Below, in pieces: positions 2,620 to 44,842 of a DNA stretch of 46,481 nucleotides. Below the pieces are notes generated by a model that was given only the letters and a program-made list of their open reading frames with translations, did no database searches and was not told the DNA's origin. How positions within the stretch are numbered: position 1 is the stretch's first letter; each line of letters starts with the position of its first letter. The stretch comes from a virus (Duplodnaviria > Heunggongvirae > Uroviricota > Caudoviricetes), in IMG/VR virus record IMGVR_UViG_648861009_000008; one strand, given 5' to 3'. A program made the position numbers and the translations under genes.

Positions 2620-3210
2620 ATGTCTCGAATTTTTGCTTACTGTCGGATATCAACGCTGGATCAGACCACCGAAAATCAACGCCGGGAAATCGAAAGTGCA
2701 GGTTTTAAAATCAAACCTCAGCAAATAATCGAAGAACACATTAGCGGCTCAGCAGCAACCAGTGAGCGTCCTGGTTTTAACCGGTTGCTTGCTCGCCTGA
2801 AATGTGGTGATCAATTGATTGTGACAAAACTGGATCGCCTTGGTTGTAATGCAATGGATATCAGGAAAACAGTGGAACAACTGACCGAAACAGGTATCAG
2901 AGTGCATTGCTTAGCATTGGGGGGCATTGACCTGACCAGTCCAACAGGAAAAATGATGATGCAAGTAATTTCAGCAGTCGCTGAATTTGAACGAGACCTT
3001 TTACTTGAACGCACTCATTCCGGGATAGTAAGAGCCCGCGGCGCAGGGAAACGTTTTGGTCGACCACCTGTGTTAAATGAAGAACAGAAACAGGTGGTAT
3101 TCGAACGAATTAAGTCAGGTGTAAGTATAAGTGCCATTGCCCGGGAATTCAAAACCTCGCGGCAAACCATTTTAAGAGCCAAAGCAAAACTTCAGACACC
3201 TGACATATAA
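2620..3210 (+). CDS. pinQ: serine-recombinase DNA invertase (Pin/Gin/Hin family)
   Basis: 196 aa; N-terminal catalytic region [10 protein letters not shown]-terminal HTH; placed next to the tail-fibre genes as in Mu gin and e14 pin. Confidence 0.9.
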
Positions 3211-3307
3211 AAAATAATCTCGGTGTGAGATGCTTTACGTCTTCCAAGCCCCCTTCCTTGCCGTAAATGGAAAGATACATCTAATTATAGAATTTATATG
3301 TTTTACC

Positions 3308-3883
3308 CTACGGCAGTGCTGGCCATTCAATATCCTGTGCAGTTGACGTATCAACACGGTTCAGCAATACCCGATACTTTTTCCATGCTTCCAGCAACGA
3401 GATTTCTTCCTCCGTTGCAATTTCCAGATCTGCAGCATCCTGAAGCGGCGCAATATGCTCACTGGCTACCTGCATCAGGTTGTTTTTTGTTTCTTCCGCC
3501 TCCCGGATCCGGAACAGTTTTTCTGCTTCCGTATCCTTCACCCAGGCTGTGCCGTTCCACTTCTGAAACTCCCCTTCCGGGGATAACCAGGTGACATTTT
3601 CCGGTAATGGGCCAAGTTCAGAAATAAATAACGCGTCGCCGGAAGCCACGTCATAGACGGTTTTACCCCGATGATCTTCAACGAGATGCCACGATGCCTC
3701 ATCACTGTTGAAAACAGCCACGAAGCCAGCCGGAATATCTGGCGGTGCAATATCGGTACTGTTTGCTGGCAGACCTGTATGAGGCGGAATATATGCGTCA
3801 CCTTCACCAATAAATTCATTAGTTCCTGCCAGCAGATTATAAATTTTTATGGTCCGTGGTTGTTCACTCATTCTGAATGCCAT
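3308..3883 (-). CDS. tfaQ: tail fibre assembly protein (Tfa)
   Basis: 191 aa; start overlaps the stf stop (TAATG); lambda Tfa-like sequence. Confidence 0.85.
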
Positions 3884-6804
3884 TATGCAAGCCTCACAAT
3901 GTAGTTAAATGCGATGTTTTTGACAGTGTTTTCCGCGTTACCAGCAGCGTTAACGGTGATGGTGTGTCCATGTGAGCCAATCGCAACAGAGTGCGTATGA
4001 GCACCAATACCGACAGTATGTGCGTGAGCACCTGCAGATGCAGCTGTGCCGCTGACACTATGAGTGTGCGCTCCTGCAGCACTTGTATTCACACTGGCCG
4101 CAGACACTACCTTATGTACTGACCCATTTTGTGACCACTGGCTGACTGCTGATGCGCCTGTGACACTATGAGTATGGTTTCCGGCACTTGCGGCTGTACC
4201 GCTCACACTGTGCGTATGCGCCCCGGTGTTATTCGTGGATTTAGTGCCGTAATCAAACGACGATGTGGTTTTCGTCCCCAAATCCGTACTGGATGCACTG
4301 GCGCTGTGGGTGTGCGATTTAATGCCGTCCTGTTCCTGAGACAATACGGCCCGACCACTGGCAGGTTTGCCCTTAATCGTCCAGCCACGCATATCAGGGA
4401 TCACGCCTGACGGATAAGCGGTTGCAAGTTTCGGGTAAGCGGATTTGTCAAAAGTCTGCCCCTGCATCAGGGCATAACCAGACGGAACGGTATCTGATGG
4501 CCACGGGATTGGTGCGCCAGGCGGATAAAACTGCTCTGATGGCGTATAGAGTGAATAAACTGTACCGTCCGTTAACCCTTCCGGCTTATTAGCAGAATAT
4601 GCTGGTGACGTATGAATAGTCACGCTGGCATTACTGGTATAATCCCATTGAATATTTACACCAGTCGCATAATTTCCGATTGCAACGTAAATATCGTAAG
4701 TATCACCAGATGTATTGACCCAGGCAAAATTTGTAAACCCTGTCGATGTGCGCTGCCATAAAGCACCAGTAATCCCCTTCGGATTACCATTACCTGCACG
4801 CAAAACAAGTTCAGATATACCTGCCTGTTGAGGTGACCCCACGTTAAATCCCGCGCCACCAATCAACGTAATTGAAACAACAGAACTCGCCTGTGGCATG
4901 GTTACCGTTGCTAATTTGAACCAACCAGCACCACCGCTGAATGACATTGTTGTTGAGTTAAGCGTACCAATATCTTTCGGCGTCAGTGTTATATCCGCTG
5001 AAAGCGCCTTACCATTCACCTTACGGGCAGAAGGTACCCGACCATTCGCATTATCATTAGCTGCTTTCACTGCTTTCGGTGTCGCGGCAAGCGTTTCAGA
5101 TGCGCTGTTGGTTGCACTACTGAGCTGGACAATTCCTTTTTGTGCTGTCGTAGCGTCCTGAGCAGTATATTTCCCGTTAGCAAGGTCATAGGCTGCCTTT
5201 ACCGACTTTGGCGTTGCCGCCAGCATTTCAGATGTGCTGTTGGTCGCGCTGCTGAGCTGAACTATCCCTTTTTGTGCTGTCGTTGCATCCTGTGCGGTGT
5301 ATTTCCCGTTAGCCAGCTCATACGCGGCCTTAACGGCTTTTGGCGTTGCCGCCAGTGACTCGGAAGTGCTGTTAGTCGCACTGCTGAGCTGTACTATCCC
5401 CTTTTTCGTCGTGCTCGCATCCTCAAGCGCCACGGCGGATGCAATATCCTCTGCCCGTTTTGCCGCTGTCTCGGCGCGCGTTGCCGCGGATTCCGCCGTA
5501 CTTTTGCTCTGAGCTGCCGCCGTCGCACTGCCAGCTGCCTCTGTCGCCTTCGTGGATGCCGTCGTGGCGCTGCCCTTTGCTGCTGACGCCTGTCTGGTCG
5601 CCTCATCTTTTGAAGCAGACGCAGATGATGCCGATGACGCCGCCGAACTGGCGGACGATGCGGCAGCCGTTTTTGAGGATTCTGCGCTGGTTTCCGACGC
5701 TTTCGCGTTCGTCTCGGATGTCTTCGCTGCGGAAGCAGACCTCGCTGCTGCGCTGGCCTGTTCAGTGGCTTCGCCAGCCTTCGTTGTGGCTGTTGAAGCG
5801 GACGATGCGGCGCTTTCTGCCGATTTTCCGGCAGCGGTGGCACTGGCTGAGGCCTGCCCGGCACTTGTTGACGCGGCACTGGCAGACGACGCAGCCGCTG
5901 TTTTTGAGCCTGCCGCAGCTGAGGCGCTCTGTCCCGCTGCCGTCTCAGAAGACCTGGCGTTCGTCTCGGACGTTTTTGCCGCCTTCGCGGAATTTGCTGC
6001 CGCCGTTGCCGAGGAAGCTGCGCTACTGGCGCTCGAGGATGCGTTCGTTTCTGATGATTTTGCCGCCTCTTTTGAAGCCGACGCATCCCGGGCTGAGGTG
6101 GCAGCTTCTGACGCTTTCGTGGTCGCGGTGGATGCAGAAGTGGCGGCTGATTGTTGTGACGCTGCAGCATTCGTTTCTGACGTTTTCGCGGCAGCGGCAC
6201 TGGTAGCTGCCGCGCTTTTTGAGGACTCTGCAGCGGCAGCACTTTTTTCCGCTTCAGTGGCCTTTGTTGATGCCGTTCCTGCGCTGGAAGACGCTGACTG
6301 AGCCGACGAAGCGGCCTGTCCGGCTGACGTGCTGGCTGCACGTGCTGAATCTGCAGCATCAGTCGCATGGGTTGCCGCCTCACGGGCAGATGTGCCGGCA
6401 TCACTGGCTGACTTCTTCGCGGCTGCCGTGTTCTGTGCCACCACGGACGCGTTACGCGCCACCTCTTCCACCATCTGTTCAAAACGGCGCAGTGCCTCCG
6501 GACGGGCATCATCCTCCGTCATGGCACCGAGAAAATCATTCAGCGTACCGGGTTGAGAATCTTCATACACGGTGATGGTCCCGGCATGTGACGGCGGGAA
6601 TCCTTCCACCAACAGAATAACGCTGTACTGCCCGTACTCAACGTCCATGCTGTAACGCCCGGCTTCATCCGGATTTTCTGAGGCCAGCGTGTTCACCACC
6701 ACCGTGGTGCTGTTACGTTTTGCTTTCAGCTGGATTGTGCAGTTCTGTACCGGTTTTCCTGTGCCGTCTTTCAGTACACCTGAAATCTTTACTGCCATAT
6801 TCAC
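3883..6804 (-). CDS. stfQ: side tail fibre protein (lambda Stf homolog) with a long Ala/Ser-rich region and three tandem ~45-aa repeats
   Basis: N-terminus [26 protein letters not shown] and C-terminus ...[31 protein letters not shown] match lambda Stf as recalled. Confidence 0.9.
5095..5435. repeat. three tandem ~133-bp direct repeats inside stf (repeat [42 protein letters not shown])
   Basis: Near-identical DNA blocks starting at about 5101, 5233 and 5366. Confidence 0.8.
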
Positions 6805-9891: not shown

Positions 9892-10730
9892 NNNNNNNNN
9901 NNNNNNNNNNNNNNNNNNNNNNNNNNNNNNNNNNNNNNNNNNNNNNNNNNNNNNNNNNNNNNNNNNNNNNNNNNNNNNNNNNNNNNNNNNNNNNNNNNNN
10001 NNNNNNNNNNNNNNNNNNNNNNNNNNNNNNNNNNNNNNNNNNNNNNNNNNNNNNNNNNNNNNNNNNNNNNNNNNNNNNNNNNNNNNNNNNNNNNNNNNNN
10101 NNNNNNNNNNNNNNNNNNNNNNNNNNNNNNNNNNNNNNNNNNNNNNNNNNNNNNNNNNNNNNNNNNNNNNNNNNNNNNNNNNNNNNNNNNNNNNNNNNNN
10201 NNNNNNNNNNNNNNNNNNNNNNNNNNNNNNNNNNNNNNNNNNNNNNNNNNNNNNNNNNNNNNNNNNNNNNNNNNNNNNNNNNNNNNNNNNNNNNNNNNNN
10301 NNNNNNNNNNNNNNNNNNNNNNNNNNNNNNNNNNNNNNNNNNNNNNNNNNNNNNNNNNNNNNNNNNNNNNNNNNNNNNNNNNNNNNNNNNNNNNNNNNNN
10401 NNNNNNNNNNNNNNNNNNNNNNNNNNNNNNNNNNNNNNNNNNNNNNNNNNNNNNNNNNNNNNNNNNNNNNNNNNNNNNNNNNNNNNNNNNNNNNNNNNNN
10501 NNNNNNNNNNNNNNNNNNNNNNNNNNNNNNNNNNNNNNNNNNNNNNNNNNNNNNNNNNNNNNNNNNNNNNNNNNNNNNNNNNNNNNNNNNNNNNNNNNNN
10601 NNNNNNNNNNNNNNNNNNNNNNNNNNNNNNNNNNNNNNNNNNNNNNNNNNNNNNNNNNNNNNNNNNNNNNNNNNNNNNNNNNNNNNNNNNNNNNNNNNNN
10701 NNNNNNNNNNNNNNNNNNNNNNNNNNNNNN
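9892..10730. other. assembly gap (839 N) hiding the 5' end of J, genes K and I, and the 3' end of L
   Basis: Run of N; flanking ORFs are J (C-terminal part) and L (N-terminal part). Confidence 0.95.
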
Positions 10731-26520: not shown

Positions 26521-26714
26521 TTTTTAAATCCAACGACAGACGGCTGGCATTTAAGTATTGTGAAATATTATCAAATGTAATCATCATTGATTTACAAAAG
26601 ATACATTTTGCCCCGAAAGGATTCATGTCAGAAACATCAAAAGATGATGTTCTATACTGGGAACCATGACAACACGGGCATCTAAAGTGAATATGGTTTG
26701 TAATATTGTCTACC

Positions 26715-26927
26715 TCAAAGCGCCACTACATGAACAGCGGCAGGACCTTTAGGTCCGTTCTCAATACCAAATTCAACTTCCTGATTCTCAGTTAATGTTT
26801 TGAAATCGTTGCTCTGAATTGCTGAGAAATGGACAAACACATCTTTGCTGCCATCTTTCGGCGTGATGAAACCAAAACCTTTTTCAGGGTTAAACCATTT
26901 CACTAAACCAGTCATTTTGTTAGACAT
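26715..26927 (-). CDS. cspI: cold-shock protein (CspA family)
   Basis: [23 protein letters not shown]...VHFSAI with RNP1/RNP2 motifs, 70 aa. Confidence 0.9.
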
Positions 26928-27290
26928 AATTATTACCTTTTGAAGAAATTAGCCCTTGGGCAGAATGGTCCGAAAAAAAATATCAGAGAGAAAAACCAAC
27001 AAGGAAATCTCAAGAGGTACAAATAATAAAATTATAACAATGACTGCTTCAGATAAATTTGTAACAAACCAGAACACCATTAACGCATGATTAACCACCC
27101 ATAGCAAGGATTACTTTTGTAAAGAAAAACACAGCAATGAAAGAATAGCTTTATTTATTAATAATAACGTGTCATTCTGATTAAGACCTTTTATCTTACC
27201 CTTAAGATTTCAGGAATTTTGGCTCATGGAAGAGTCCTTTTTATTTAAATTTTACATTCCGCGATGTAAATGTTCCGATTTAATATTACC

Positions 27291-29320: not shown

Positions 29321-29599
29321 GATTGTGGTGCTTTTTGTGGGAGTCATCCACTTACGCACTTTGTTTTGCCATGCCAGCAGTTAGCTTCTGCTGTAAAACT
29401 ATTCATGCAGCAAACCTGCACTTCACCACAATGGTTAGCATACTTTTCCTGATTAAGATTTTGCCAAATATGCTAGCCATTGTTTCATGTATTGGACCTC
29501 CTTACTTTTTATTAAAGAGATCCAATATTCACTACTCTGTCCGTATCTCTACTCAGGCATCAGCCTTCTTCGTTATCGTATACAGACGAGCGATGAATT

Positions 29600-29815
29600 T
29601 TAATCAGTAATGATGACATTTGCTGCTGCAGGACCTTTAGCACCACTCTCTATAGAGAAGGTAACCTTTTGACCTTCAAATAAGGTTCGATAATTATCAT
29701 TCTGAATCGCAGAAAAATGCACAAACACATCTTTACTACCATCAACAGGAGAAATAAAGCCGAAACCTTTATCAGCGTTAAACCATTTTACTAAACCAGT
29801 CATTTTATTTGACAT
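29600..29815 (-). CDS. cspB: cold-shock protein (CspA family)
   Basis: [23 protein letters not shown]...VHFSAIQ..., 71 aa. Confidence 0.9.
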
Positions 29816-30115
29816 TCTACATTCCTTAACTTGAGCCTTTCGGCATAAATGGTTTGCATAACAGAAACGACTTCGTACTTAATTGGAGAGACTCAAAGAA
29901 GGAATAAGTGAATAACACCTGAAATGAGAACTGCTTTAGTAAACTACTTCGTATATCGTCTGTTCTTCAAACCGACGCAATCATTAACGCATAGTTGAAC
30001 ATATGAAGCAATGTTTATTTTAGACATCCAGCCATCTTCAACCCCATCAAAAAACTATAGCTTTCTTCAGGAACGTGTGTATAGTGCGCCAAGTTATCAG
30101 TATTAAGGAATTTTT

Positions 30116-33378: not shown

Positions 33379-33534
33379 TTACTCCTCAGGTTCGTAAGCT
33401 GTGAAGACAGCGACCTCCGTCTGGCCGGTTCGGATTCGTACCTCGCAGAGGTCTTTCCTCGTTACCAGTGCCGTCACTATGACGGTTAAACAGATGACGA
33501 TCAGGGCGATTAACATCGCCTTTTGCTGCTTCAT
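33379..33534 (-). CDS. hokD: Hok/Gef-family type I toxin
   Basis: MKQQKAMLIALIVICLTVIVTALVTRKDLCEVRIRTGQTEVAVFTAYEPEE (51 aa); start codon abuts the N-run. Confidence 0.9.
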   Translation of the reverse strand: MKQQKAMLIALIVICLTVIVTALVTRKDLCEVRIRTGQTEVAVFTAYEPEE

Positions 33535-34715: not shown

Positions 34716-35173
34716 GGGGCGCCACAGCGCGAGGAGCTGGCCGAGGTCGGATGTGGACTGGCTGATCGCCGAGCGACCCCGGCAACGGTAAGAACCTTGA
34801 AACAGCATCCACGCAAGAACAAAACGGCCATCAACATCGAATCCATGAAAGCCAGCATCCGGGCCAAGGTGGAGCACCCATTTCGCATCATCAAGCGACA
34901 GTTCGGCTTCGTGAAAGCCAGATACAAGGGGTTGCTGAAAAACGATAACCAACTGGCGATGTTATTCACGCTGGCCAACCTGTTTCGGGCGGACCAAATG
35001 ATACGTCAGTGGGAGAGATCTCACTAAAAACTGGGGATAACGCCTTAAATGGCGAAGAAACGGTCTAAATAGGCTGATTCAAGGCATTTACGGGAGAAAA
35101 AATCGGCTCAAACATGAAGAAATGAAATGACTGAGTCAGCCGAGAAGAATTTCCCCGCTTATTCGCACCTTCC
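34716..35173 (+). mobile_element. IS5, right-hand ~460 bp (rest in gap); terminal inverted repeat CTTATTCGCACCTTCC at 35158..35173, followed by CTAA
   Basis: Encodes the InsH C-terminus (...[45 protein letters not shown]...RQWERSH) and ends in the IS5 terminal repeat as recalled. Confidence 0.85.
34797..35027 (+). CDS. insH: IS5 transposase InsH, C-terminal fragment
   Basis: Translation matches the InsH C-terminus; the 80 nt between the gap and this ORF encode InsH-like sequence in shifting frames. Confidence 0.8.
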
Positions 35174-35379
35174 CTAACCTTCTAGTCCGCTTTGAGCGAA
35201 AAACAGCCATAATTTAGTGCCACGTATATAATGATAGAGCTATTCAAGCTAGCAATTCACATGTAAAAATTCAGAGGGTAGAAGCACATAGTTATAAATG
35301 TTGGCTCCATCGACAAATTGCGGTCTCAAGTACATTTATTAATGTTGCCCCCGCATTAACAAATCATCAAGGTGACGAC

Positions 35380-37167
35380 ATGGACGATATTAATATCAGC
35401 CTCGACGAACTTAACACTATTGATTTATCCCCCTTAATCCAGAGTAAGCTGCCAGTTACCTGCTTTGATATCACAAAGTATCTTTCTAGCCTAGGTGATG
35501 GAAGAGCGGAGATAAGACTGCTAACCCATATTTGCGGTTTTCACTTTCGTCCCGAAAATCCACAGGTACCATTTGGTCCGTGCTTTCAAAGCAGCCAAGG
35601 TAGATCTGCAATTCCGGATGACATTAACGGGTTGTCGCTGGAGGTACTTTCTCAATTTTGCCCGACGATAGAGCTACCCGAACTTCAAGCTCGTATTGCT
35701 GATACACTTTGGGTTCGTAAAATTGGTGGAATCCGTTTTCCTTTGCTGGCAGTCCGTGCTTATTATGCGTCCAGTATAGCTATTATGACATCGCAAGGGA
35801 CGTGGGTTAGTGCTTTAGAACGCCTAGAGCGTGCGCTTAGGCTGTGTTGTTTTTTTCGAAAGAATACTGATTTCAGGGATGAATTTGATCAGCTTTCGGC
35901 ACATCTACTAGCAGAGTATGAACGTACCAGAGAACAAGGCGATTCACCTTATCCGCTGCGACTCCTGCAACTCGATATCGACTGTAAAGTGAGTGAGCCA
36001 TCTTTTATTGCCCAGGAACTCCTGTTTCTGACAAAAAACTATCTGGCTCAAAAATTATTTTCATTTGCCGTCGATGCCTGTAAAACCGCAATCACGATTG
36101 CGAATAGGTGCTGTGACAGAGATACACAGTTTGAATTCTGGCGGCTTCTTGCCGATACACATCTGGAAGAGTCAAAATTCCAAGATGGCGGTATGATTTC
36201 GGCAGCCTGCATGCAGAATGCTATTGAAGCACTGGCTAATATTCCAGGAACCCGAATAGAACGTCTTGCGCTGTATGAAGAAATGCGTGATTACCAAATC
36301 GAATCCCGTCACCAGATGTCTATCCTTCAGTCTCCCCCTCAAGATATTAGTGAGATTGTCCATCAAGCCAAGAGTCGGGTAGTCGGAAGAGATATGTTTG
36401 ATATGGTTTTCAGACTTGCGATGCTGGTCTGTCGGCCAACCAGCATTGAGAGACTTAAGGCTCAAGCAATAGAACAAAAGGCCAACAGCATAGCTTGGAT
36501 GTTTGGATCAACACATATTGATCATGAGGGAATGACACTTGCTCGCATACCCGCAGGATTGGGGATTGATGATGCAAATGGGGCAGTTATTTGGCCCATA
36601 ATGATGACGAGAATGCGTATCGACCATGAGTTGGCAGTAGCTGGGCAAATTATTCCTGCTACAGATGAGATCACAATGAAATATCCAATCTCGGAGGCGT
36701 TTTTTCGCGATATGTTCATCAATCATCCCTTCATCCCGTTTGGGCATGAAGAGTTTTTCATCAAGGGTATGGTTTGCGGTTTCAATGGAGATTTTATGAC
36801 GGCATGCCACGTGTTGATTCCCCAGATCGAAAATAGTCTGAGATATGTGGCTAAAATTAAAGGTGAGGAACCATCGCAGCTTCACGGGGACGGTTCGCAA
36901 GAGCGAAATGGACTCAAGGGATTACTAGATAATCCACTGATTATTGAAGCTTTCGGCGTAGACATAATTGGCAATCTTCAGGCCTTACTGGTAGATAAAA
37001 TCTATGGTGATTTACGAAATCAACTAGCTCACGGATATGTGCCTGCCGGTTACTACAATCAACCTCCCTGCATTTTTGCATGGTGGCTTGTATTGCACAT
37101 TCTAATGAACCCTACGGCGAGATACTGGCAAGCCACTTATGGCCAAGAGAGTGAGGCTCAGACTTAA
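35380..37167 (+). CDS. orphan 595-aa protein, mostly helical, C-terminal RNxxxH (HEPN-like) motif; candidate abortive-infection/defence effector
   Basis: Intact ORF with AAGGTGA RBS; opposite strand to the phage early operon; AT-rich upstream region; IS5 end 200 bp upstream; GC and codon use lower than flanking phage genes; motif LVDKIYGDLRNQLAHGY near the C-terminus. Confidence 0.7.
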   Translation: MDDINISLDELNTIDLSPLIQSKLPVTCFDITKYLSSLGDGRAEIRLLTHICGFHFRPENPQVPFGPCFQSSQGRSAIPDDINGLSLEVLSQFCPTIELPELQARIADTLWVRKIGGIRFPLLAVRAYYASSIAIMTSQGTWVSALERLERALRLCCFFRKNTDFRDEFDQLSAHLLAEYERTREQGDSPYPLRLLQLDIDCKVSEPSFIAQELLFLTKNYLAQKLFSFAVDACKTAITIANRCCDRDTQFEFWRLLADTHLEESKFQDGGMISAACMQNAIEALANIPGTRIERLALYEEMRDYQIESRHQMSILQSPPQDISEIVHQAKSRVVGRDMFDMVFRLAMLVCRPTSIERLKAQAIEQKANSIAWMFGSTHIDHEGMTLARIPAGLGIDDANGAVIWPIMMTRMRIDHELAVAGQIIPATDEITMKYPISEAFFRDMFINHPFIPFGHEEFFIKGMVCGFNGDFMTACHVLIPQIENSLRYVAKIKGEEPSQLHGDGSQERNGLKGLLDNPLIIEAFGVDIIGNLQALLVDKIYGDLRNQLAHGYVPAGYYNQPPCIFAWWLVLHILMNPTARYWQATYGQESEAQT

Positions 37168-37288: not shown

Positions 37289-37385
37289 AACCACGCCAGA
37301 TCTACCCTGTGCCATGAAAAATGAGAATGTCAATTCACTCCTGAACTAATGCTTTTTAATCTAGTAACGTCTAAAATACCTAACA

Positions 37386-40951: not shown

Positions 40952-41239
40952 GTGGTTAAAAGCAGGCACACAACACGAAAGCGCACGGCGAAGTTCGTCT
41001 CACTGTACGGTGTCGTCAAATTTAATTCGACCGTGCGCTTCCGGTTGTGGCAACCCGCGAAATGGCGCGGCGGTAAGTATGGCGGGGTTATTCCTTCCCC
41101 GTTGAGGACACCGAGTTGTCAGGTTGACCATACGCTTAAGCGACAACCCCGCTGCAACGCCCTCTGTTATCAATTTTCTGGTGACGTTTGGCGGTATCAG
41201 TTTTACTCCGTGACTGCTCTGCCGCCGTTTTTAAAGTGA
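40952..41239 (+). CDS. ydfC: YdfC-like ORF; the reading frame runs through the DicF region, so the true end is uncertain
   Basis: MVKSRHTTRKRTAKFVSLYGVVKFNSTVRF... Confidence 0.4.
   Translation: MVKSRHTTRKRTAKFVSLYGVVKFNSTVRFRLWQPAKWRGGKYGGVIPSPLRTPSCQVDHTLKRQPRCNALCYQFSGDVWRYQFYSVTALPPFLK
41175..41227 (+). ncRNA. dicF: DicF small regulatory RNA (about 53 nt) followed by a T-run at 41228..41232
   Basis: TTTCTGGTGACGTTTGGCGGTATCAGTTTTACTCCGTGACTGCTCTGCCGCC matches DicF as recalled, between ydfC and dicB. Confidence 0.85.
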
Positions 41240-44299: not shown

Positions 44300-44351
44300 N
44301 NNNNNNNNNNNNNNNNNNNNNNNNNNNNNNNNNNNNNNNNNNNNNNNNNNN
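44300..44351. other. assembly gap (52 N) between two overlapping copies of the same ~445-bp sequence
   Basis: 43851..44299 and 44352..44798 are near-identical apart from single-base indels. Confidence 0.9.
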
Positions 44352-44356
44352 AATAG

Positions 44357-44842
44357 GTGCAATATTTTTCGATCCGCAAACCGGAGATATGGACCGAATT
44401 TATTAAGACTATCGATCTGGAAACTGCTGGCGGAGTCATTGATCGGGACACCATTAAATGGTGGTTTAAGCAATCACGCGAAGCGCAATCTGCCATTATG
44501 ACCGATGAAATCCCGTTAGATGATGCACTGTTACAATTGCGGGAATTTATCGACGAAAACTCCGGTGAATTTTTTGTTCAGGTCTGGGGAAATGGAGCCA
44601 ACTTCGACAACACGATTTTGCGCCGTTCATACGAACGGCAGGGGATCCCCTGCCCGTGGCGTTACTACAACGATCGCGATGTACGCACAATCGTTGAGCT
44701 GGGGAAAGCCATAGACTTCGATGCCAGAACGGCTATTCAATTCGAAGGTGAGCGCCATAATGCACTTGATGACGCCCGTTACCAGGCAAAATACGTTTCA
44801 GTTATCTGGCAAAAACTGATCCCGAGTCAGGCTGATTCTTAA
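44357..44842 (+). CDS. exonuclease C-terminal segment (second copy; carries the true 3' end of the gene)
   Basis: 161-aa ORF repeating ...EFIKTIDLETAGGVIDRDTIKWW... and continuing ...HNALDDARYQAKYVSVIWQKLIPSQADS. Confidence 0.6.
   Translation: MQYFSIRKPEIWTEFIKTIDLETAGGVIDRDTIKWWFKQSREAQSAIMTDEIPLDDALLQLREFIDENSGEFFVQVWGNGANFDNTILRRSYERQGIPCPWRYYNDRDVRTIVELGKAIDFDARTAIQFEGERHNALDDARYQAKYVSVIWQKLIPSQADS

Follow-up and report, generated by a model that had tools for sequence, protein, structure and literature searches.

The prophage locus analysed here raises the question of whether a transposase-like fragment, lying between a scaffold gap and a 595-aa gene, marks a genuine IS5 insertion or a product of draft assembly, and, if genuine, whether it could alter the expression of the gene that follows it. 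The window, by which we mean the whole stretch of DNA that was analysed (46,481 nt; IMG/VR record IMGVR_UViG_648861009_000008), constitutes a lambdoid prophage of full length, integrated at Qin (ydfJ). A truncated ydfJ comes first, followed by genes for the tail, the head and lysis and by cspB/cspF, ydfT (Q-like), ydfU, rem and hokD, up to the 595-aa gene; the order continues with a Ren-like DUF977 gene, an O-like replication gene, ydaT, cro/cI-like genes, DicF/dicB, an exonuclease gene, xis and int. The window is collinear with many complete genomes and, as regards substitutions, 100% identical to them. The features at the locus are listed below; L001 denotes the record that supplied the reference IS5 copy and L002 the record that supplied the empty-site sequence.

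33379-33534, minus strand: hokD (Hok/Gef type I toxin, 51 aa), an ORF beginning MKQQKAMLIAL and identical to annotated WP_000813254.1
33536-34715, no strand: scaffold gap, a run of 1180 N
34716-35173, plus strand: right (3′) part of IS5, identical to canonical IS5 apart from three inserted bases
34716-35027, plus strand: C-terminal 103 codons and stop codon of the ins5A (InsH) transposase, as translated after removal of the three extra bases
34748 (C), 34776 (A) and 34786 (C), plus strand: three 1-base insertions that shift the ins5A frame, located by alignment to IS5
34997-35173, plus strand: IS5 "IB" region, the 3′ 177 bp, identical to canonical IS5
35158-35173, plus strand: IS5 right terminal inverted repeat of 16 bp, CTTATTCGCACCTTCC, the reverse complement of GGAAGGTGCGAATAAG, as in L001
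35174-35177, no strand: CTAA target, expected to be the right-hand copy of a 4-bp duplication; the empty site has it once (L002 5001-5004)
35178-35379, plus strand: native upstream region of the 595-aa gene, delimited with candidate promoters and an alignment to Brenneria
35380-37167, plus strand: 595-aa DUF7380 + DUF4209 (HEPN-type) gene, assigned from Pfam, PADLOC, a motif and its neighbours; hereafter the HEPN gene

Base-by-base alignment against the reference IS5 copy (L001:761-1955, 1195 bp, bounded by GGAAGGTGCGAACAAG and CTTATTCGCACCTTCC) revealed that 34716-35173 comprises the final 455 bp of canonical IS5 (positions 741-1195) with 0 substitutions. The three inserted bases are the sole differences, all other bases being identical (455/455). 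The stretch 34716-35177 matches IS5 copies in 2,842 of 5,426 complete E. coli genomes, the best of them end to end at 99.4% (462 query bases against 459 record bases). The element agrees with the IS5 of E. coli K-12 and relatives in its right repeat, in its transposase C-terminus and in having the typical CTAA as target; position alone sets it apart. As written, the C-terminus of InsH runs through three frames in translation; removal of the three extra bases restores the last 103 residues of WP_000019400.1 exactly, and the N-terminal 223 codons, the IS5 left repeat and the left CTAA copy would fall in the gap. Within the IB region, eight A-tracts and the IHF site (TCAA at 35079-35082, TT at 35087-35088) are all intact. 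The element ends at 35173 with CTAA directly 3′ of it, and this end lies 206 nt from the ATG of the 595-aa ORF. These comparisons confirm that the element seen here is the right end of an ordinary IS5 copy, so that the first-pass annotation, which had read an IS5 right end after the gap, was correct in its sequence-level observation.

The corresponding empty site is found in complete genomes that carry the same Qin-site lambdoid prophage, in which the spacer between hokD and the HEPN gene is unbroken and measures 674 bp; strains 118UI and ATCC 25922 are two examples. Its flanks are collinear with the window at 100% identity, and homology with the window resumes exactly at the single CTAA. Because the break matches to the base an IS5 terminus plus one copy of the preferred 4-bp target, it bears the signature of transposition and not of mis-assembly, and the IS5 insertion itself is genuine. 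Two further statements made from the letters alone are borne out by the same evidence: the CTAA said to follow the terminal repeat is in place and occurs singly at the matching point of the empty site, and the position of IS5 some 200 bp upstream of the 595-aa gene reflects real adjacency, the junction lying inside one contig and exactly on the empty-site CTAA.

Since the junction was not found elsewhere, the content of the gap was predicted from the empty-site sequence (L002:4534-5004). About 1211 nt would be hidden there, made up of 467 nt of DNA upstream of hokD (sok/mok and spacer), the left copy of CTAA, and positions 1-740 of IS5. A simple insertion predicts a left junction that reads ...GACACAAGCTAA and passes directly into GGAAGGTGCGAACAAG. 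The N run (1180) is 31 nt shorter than this simple-insertion expectation, in a scaffold where gap sizes are unreliable. The reading that we favour, with a probability of roughly 0.85, is a strain-private insertion of canonical IS5 in the prophage spacer, with the assembly broken inside IS5 and errors at the contig end. A canonical 1195-bp IS5 would have transposed, in this strain only, into the CTAA of the 674-bp spacer between hokD/sok and the DUF7380-DUF4209 (HEPN) gene. The draft assembly would then have broken inside the element, leaving a gene-bearing contig that extends 458 nt into IS5 with three erroneous bases in its last 71 nt, and a gap that would conceal the remainder of IS5 along with the left CTAA copy and sok/mok. 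We infer that the element is complete and that the event was a simple insertion, with its left junction hidden in the gap.

The quality of the scaffold was assessed by comparing the whole window with the closest complete genomes over about 44 kb, which gave 14 differences, all of them 1-nt indels, and 0 substitutions (the tally omits an apparent mismatch at 35174, where the flank is aligned against a different flank). Half of these indels (7/14) lie no more than 71 nt from gap edges: three follow 34716, and the others form two pairs, one before 44299 and one after 44352. None of these seven is in a homopolymer; the seven interior indels (12636, 21400, 25980, 26021, 26420, 33284 and 40755) are all in A or T homopolymers. 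Finding at least 7 of 14 indels in the 80-nt zones at the six gap edges has a binomial P of about 6e-11. This error profile is that of a low-coverage, pyrosequencing-type draft scaffold, and the interior indels in A/T runs are likely to be pyrosequencing-type errors that create false frameshifts in prophage genes.

The N runs show the same character. The 52-N gap at 44300-44351 is false: the two contigs that flank it share about 449 nt within the exonuclease gene of the prophage, the segment 43897-44196 is repeated at 100% identity at 44396-44695 across the gap, and four non-homopolymer indels lie within 43 nt of its edges. The 839-N gap (9892-10730) corresponds to 2,447 nt in the collinear genome 2017C-4173W12 (L009 9892-12338), where the hidden sequence comprises the 3′ part of gpJ and tail-assembly genes. 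Because 839 N stand for 2,447 nt and 52 N lie between overlapping contigs, the lengths of N runs are not true lengths. The idea that the N runs represent deliberate masking was rejected on the same two observations.

Against this background, the three extra bases in IS5 are almost certainly contig-end errors. They would be real if this IS5 copy were decaying or variant with its frame kept open by the net gain, and there are points in favour of such a history: the insertions sum to +3, replacing 12 native residues with 13, frame 0 stays open without a stop over the altered stretch, and none of the three bases is in a homopolymer. However, all three fall within 71 nt of the gap, a stretch with 0 substitutions that gives way to 387 nt of perfect identity, and none of them (0 for 34748 C, 34776 A and 34786 C alike) occurs among about 13,500 IS5 copies in complete E. 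coli genomes; non-homopolymer indels cluster in like manner at both edges of another gap in the scaffold. Given the error profile of the draft scaffold and the absence of these bases from the IS5 copies, contig-end error is much the most likely reading and real insertions are highly improbable. The early remark that the frame-shifting bases looked like low-quality contig-end sequence is upheld by their uniqueness among the IS5 copies, by the seven indels at gap edges and by the false 52-N gap. A further alternative is that the insertion was genuine and accompanied by a left-side deletion or rearrangement, for example with loss of sok/mok, in which case the gap would hold less or other DNA. Such an event could account for the left contig stopping exactly one base upstream of the hokD ATG, its junction would be hidden in the gap, and assemblers often break contigs at repeat boundaries. 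Yet the left contig terminates in ...TTCATA, which does not fit the YTAR target of IS5. The sok-proximal DNA, moreover, is a stretch of roughly 190-240 nt that belongs to a multi-copy family, with a median of 2 places in an E. coli genome and a maximum of 10; it would itself break assemblies, and this would account for a left contig that ends at the hokD ATG. The N run of 1180 is also much nearer to 1211, as expected for simple insertion, than to the roughly 740 expected after deletion, with the caveat that gap sizes are unreliable. An IS5-mediated deletion reaching hokD is unlikely for these three reasons, and we regard any left-side loss or rearrangement as improbable. The join between IS5 and its flank could, finally, be an assembly chimera with no IS5 upstream of the gene. 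In favour of this are the low quality of the assembly and the repetition of IS5 in multiple copies; against it, homology breaks off exactly at an IS5 terminus and at the canonical CTAA of which the empty site has one copy. A chimera is unlikely to respect both, and the junction sits 458 nt inside a contig, which makes this account barely credible. The transposase fragment with its shifted frames, the gap of 1180 N and the false gap nearby are products of the assembly that should not be taken for biology, a point whose value is mainly one of housekeeping.

To place the insertion in a wider context, a query joining the IS5 end to the flank was searched against 5,426 complete E. coli genomes, and no place spanning both halves was found; exact-match scans for the junction likewise returned nothing in species-representative genomes or metagenome contigs. 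The spacer is unbroken in 30 contigs that encode the exact protein (4 representative places, the other 26 being listed as similar). As far as the searched collections show, the insertion would be private to the source strain. Strain GN05505, whose match is 1,199 nt longer, was considered as a carrier of the same insertion and rejected: its IS5 (L008 13217-14411) lies at a different CTAA, equivalent to window 37380-37383, just downstream of the HEPN gene. In further independent events, other insertion sequences interrupt the ORF of the HEPN gene itself, namely IS4 in FDAARGOS_1290 (L011 about 3030-4470) and IS1203 in strain 720632 (L010 about 5150-6400). The HEPN gene looks like a recurrent IS target, or like a gene that is often dispensable or costly. 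The insertion in the window is real but routine, that of a fully ordinary IS5.

Domain analysis of the 595-aa protein identified DUF7380 at the N-terminus (E=2e-34) and DUF4209 (PF13910) at the C-terminus. The DUF4209 match (E=3e-8) passes the cut-off, and the domain contains an Rx4-6H motif, RNQLAH, at residues 546-551. DUF4209 has been assigned to the C6orf70 branch of the HEPN superfamily, whose members are mostly RNases and occur in defence contexts (PMC3710099). Carrying both the domain and the motif, the protein fits this DUF4209/C6orf70 branch. The profile of the PADLOC candidate PDC-S39 matches over its full length (E=8e-103, residues 43-581), which suggests a candidate defence system only; in the parts of the literature that were available, PDC-S39 receives passing mentions, without a functional test, and comparison of the protein with PDB and NCBIfam gave nothing useful.

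The exact protein is WP_000340970.1 ("DUF4209 domain-containing protein"). It occurs in 7,275 blocks of the public assembly collection, and a query of the gene plus its flanks was covered to at least 80% in 148 complete genomes. The label of orphan gene given in the first-pass annotation does not survive these counts, which describe a common DUF7380 + DUF4209 prophage gene. Flanked by the Ren-like gene and hokD and encoded on the opposite strand, the gene occupies the ren/nin slot as a moron, a classic position for such genes in lambdoid phages. Its G+C content is 44.7%, with 38.8% for the leader (35174-35379) and 48.7% for the window. A homologue in Brenneria bubanii (L013) is 83% identical and shares only about 125 nt of upstream DNA (about 35255-35379). 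A protein 100% identical to that of E. coli is also encoded on a 5-kb contig (L012, JAEWTL010000124.1) from a "Bacillota bacterium" MAG, which is probably a case of bin contamination.

We next consider whether the insertion could influence this gene. A looser hexamer scan of the native upstream region revealed two candidate sigma-70 promoters, one with a -35 of CAGCCA at 35204 and a -10 of TATAAT at 35227-35232, the other with TCGACA at 35310 and TACATT at 35331; a stricter sigma-70 scan of 34900-35500 found no site at threshold. The best candidate is a weak one, combining a perfect TATAAT with a weak -35, and it would place the IS5 end near -66 of the best-guess start. IS5 would accordingly replace all DNA upstream of about -66 relative to that start. 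Every candidate promoter lies downstream of IS5, as does the conserved cassette that begins at about 35255. Because the candidate promoters and the conserved stretch of about 125 nt are all downstream of the insertion, the gene would not be cut off from its signals. The ins5A gene reads toward the HEPN gene, the 3′ IB region adjoins the gene side, and no intrinsic terminator is predicted on the plus strand between ins5A and the HEPN gene.

Published work on IS5 describes three routes by which the element increases expression of a gene next to it. The IB region (3′ 177 bp, with an A-tract bend and an IHF site) activates the glpFK and lac promoters in a phase-dependent manner and has no promoter activity alone (PMC2753651). 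Upstream silencing is relieved by IS5 at bgl, flhDC and ade; in the activating insertions at fucAO, flhDC and glpFK the 3′ end of IS5 faces the activated gene and the ins5A promoter is on the far side, while activation of bgl is orientation-independent (PMC2753651). At fucAO, a silent ins5A promoter and a flanking Crp site form a fusion promoter with read-through of the element; for this, the centre of the Crp site must be at -61.5, immediately beyond the left repeat (PMC11894529).

The orientation observed here is that of the published activating insertions at glpFK, flhDC and fucAO. As at glpFK (Zhang and Saier 2009, PMC2753651) and flhDC, the target is CTAA upstream of the promoter region, the ins5A promoter is distal and IB is proximal, with the IHF site and eight A-tracts intact. 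The IS5 junction, in contrast, would lie at about -66 by our best guess, compared with -126.5 at glpFK and -99.5 or -169.5 at flhDC, and the event is single and known from sequence alone. With fucAO (PMC11894529) the locus shares the orientation, and with no predicted terminator between ins5A and the downstream gene, read-through is physically possible. The predicted left flank (empty site, L002 4973-4994), however, contains no TGTGA/TCACA motif and no Crp site at -61.5; the sole Crp-like 16-mer in the spacer (TGTGGAAATGGGGCACA, L002 4934-4949) is centred about 63 nt from the IS end, which is too far. A fusion promoter of the fucAO type was rejected as the likely mechanism for lack of a suitably placed Crp site in that flank, and an increase in transcription by this route is the less likely one.

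From orientation and position, a measurable change in HEPN-gene transcription from IS5 may be expected at slightly better than even odds. An increase, whether through IB/IHF bending or through loss of upstream silencing, is possible, though we would sooner doubt it. A neutral insertion is about as likely as any expression change. IS5 would then be a passenger that entered a preferred CTAA in an A+T-rich prophage spacer, with no measurable change for the HEPN gene or for hokD, and to this we give a little under even odds. The roughly 125-nt upstream stretch conserved with the gene is not touched by the insertion, and the promoter-like site of hokD is about 264 nt away from it. The event is single and private, and the searched collections show no second insertion at the site. 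Activation by IB is moreover phase-dependent and IB lacks a promoter of its own (PMC2753651), and the ins5A promoter is essentially silent alone (PMC11894529). Set against neutrality are the exchange of the DNA upstream of about -66 for one of the most strongly bent segments of E. coli, together with an IHF site, the orientation shared with fucAO, flhDC and glpFK, and an A+T-rich leader, such DNA often being subject to silencing from upstream.

That IS5 serves as an adaptive cis-regulatory switch of the HEPN gene (PDC-S39), acting through the IB bend and IHF or through relief of silencing, is unlikely in our estimation. If it were true, the glpFK/flhDC/bgl type of IS5 activation would extend to an anti-phage gene, and the IS4, IS1203 and IS5 events at the HEPN gene elsewhere would reflect selection on its dosage. 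Those events may instead indicate tolerance or counter-selection of the gene rather than activation. The insertion places a well-studied, activator-capable IS5 end directly against the control region of a candidate defence gene that is as yet uncharacterised, which provides a natural IS5+/IS5- allele pair usable for the study of HEPN-gene regulation and host cost.

On the other side of the insertion, hokD in this prophage lineage keeps its sok/mok region and a promoter-like site. The sok/mok region upstream of hokD, hidden in the gap of the window, gives an Rfam sok match of 116 bits at L002 4527-4701, and the promoter-like site lies at L002 4736-4708; the left contig of the window ends one base past the hokD ATG. 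IS5 is about 470 nt upstream of that ATG and about 264 nt farther out than the promoter-like site, a distance that makes any influence on hokD unlikely. In K-12, hokD follows relBE. Pedersen and Gerdes are said to have reported in 1999 that, in E. coli K-12, IS150 lies at hokA and IS186 at hokC and hokE. As here, the IS at those chromosomal hok loci is near hok/sok and outside it; in this prophage the distance to the hokD ATG is about 470 nt.

Several minor observations were made in the same records. A 70-aa in-frame hok extension (L002 4377-4589) is called as a gene in some of them, and the spacer between hokD and the HEPN gene contains a 30-aa hydrophobic ORF (MVLVLKCALAITAVMAIYCLAIVLMDRLSD) on the minus strand at L002 4744-4836. 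In the window, Rfam matches above the gathering score comprise the DicF sRNA (41176-41227), IS009 (3342-3540) and two cspA-type thermoregulator leaders, those of cspI and cspB (26688-27073 and 29584-29976), all of which are as expected for a Qin-type prophage.
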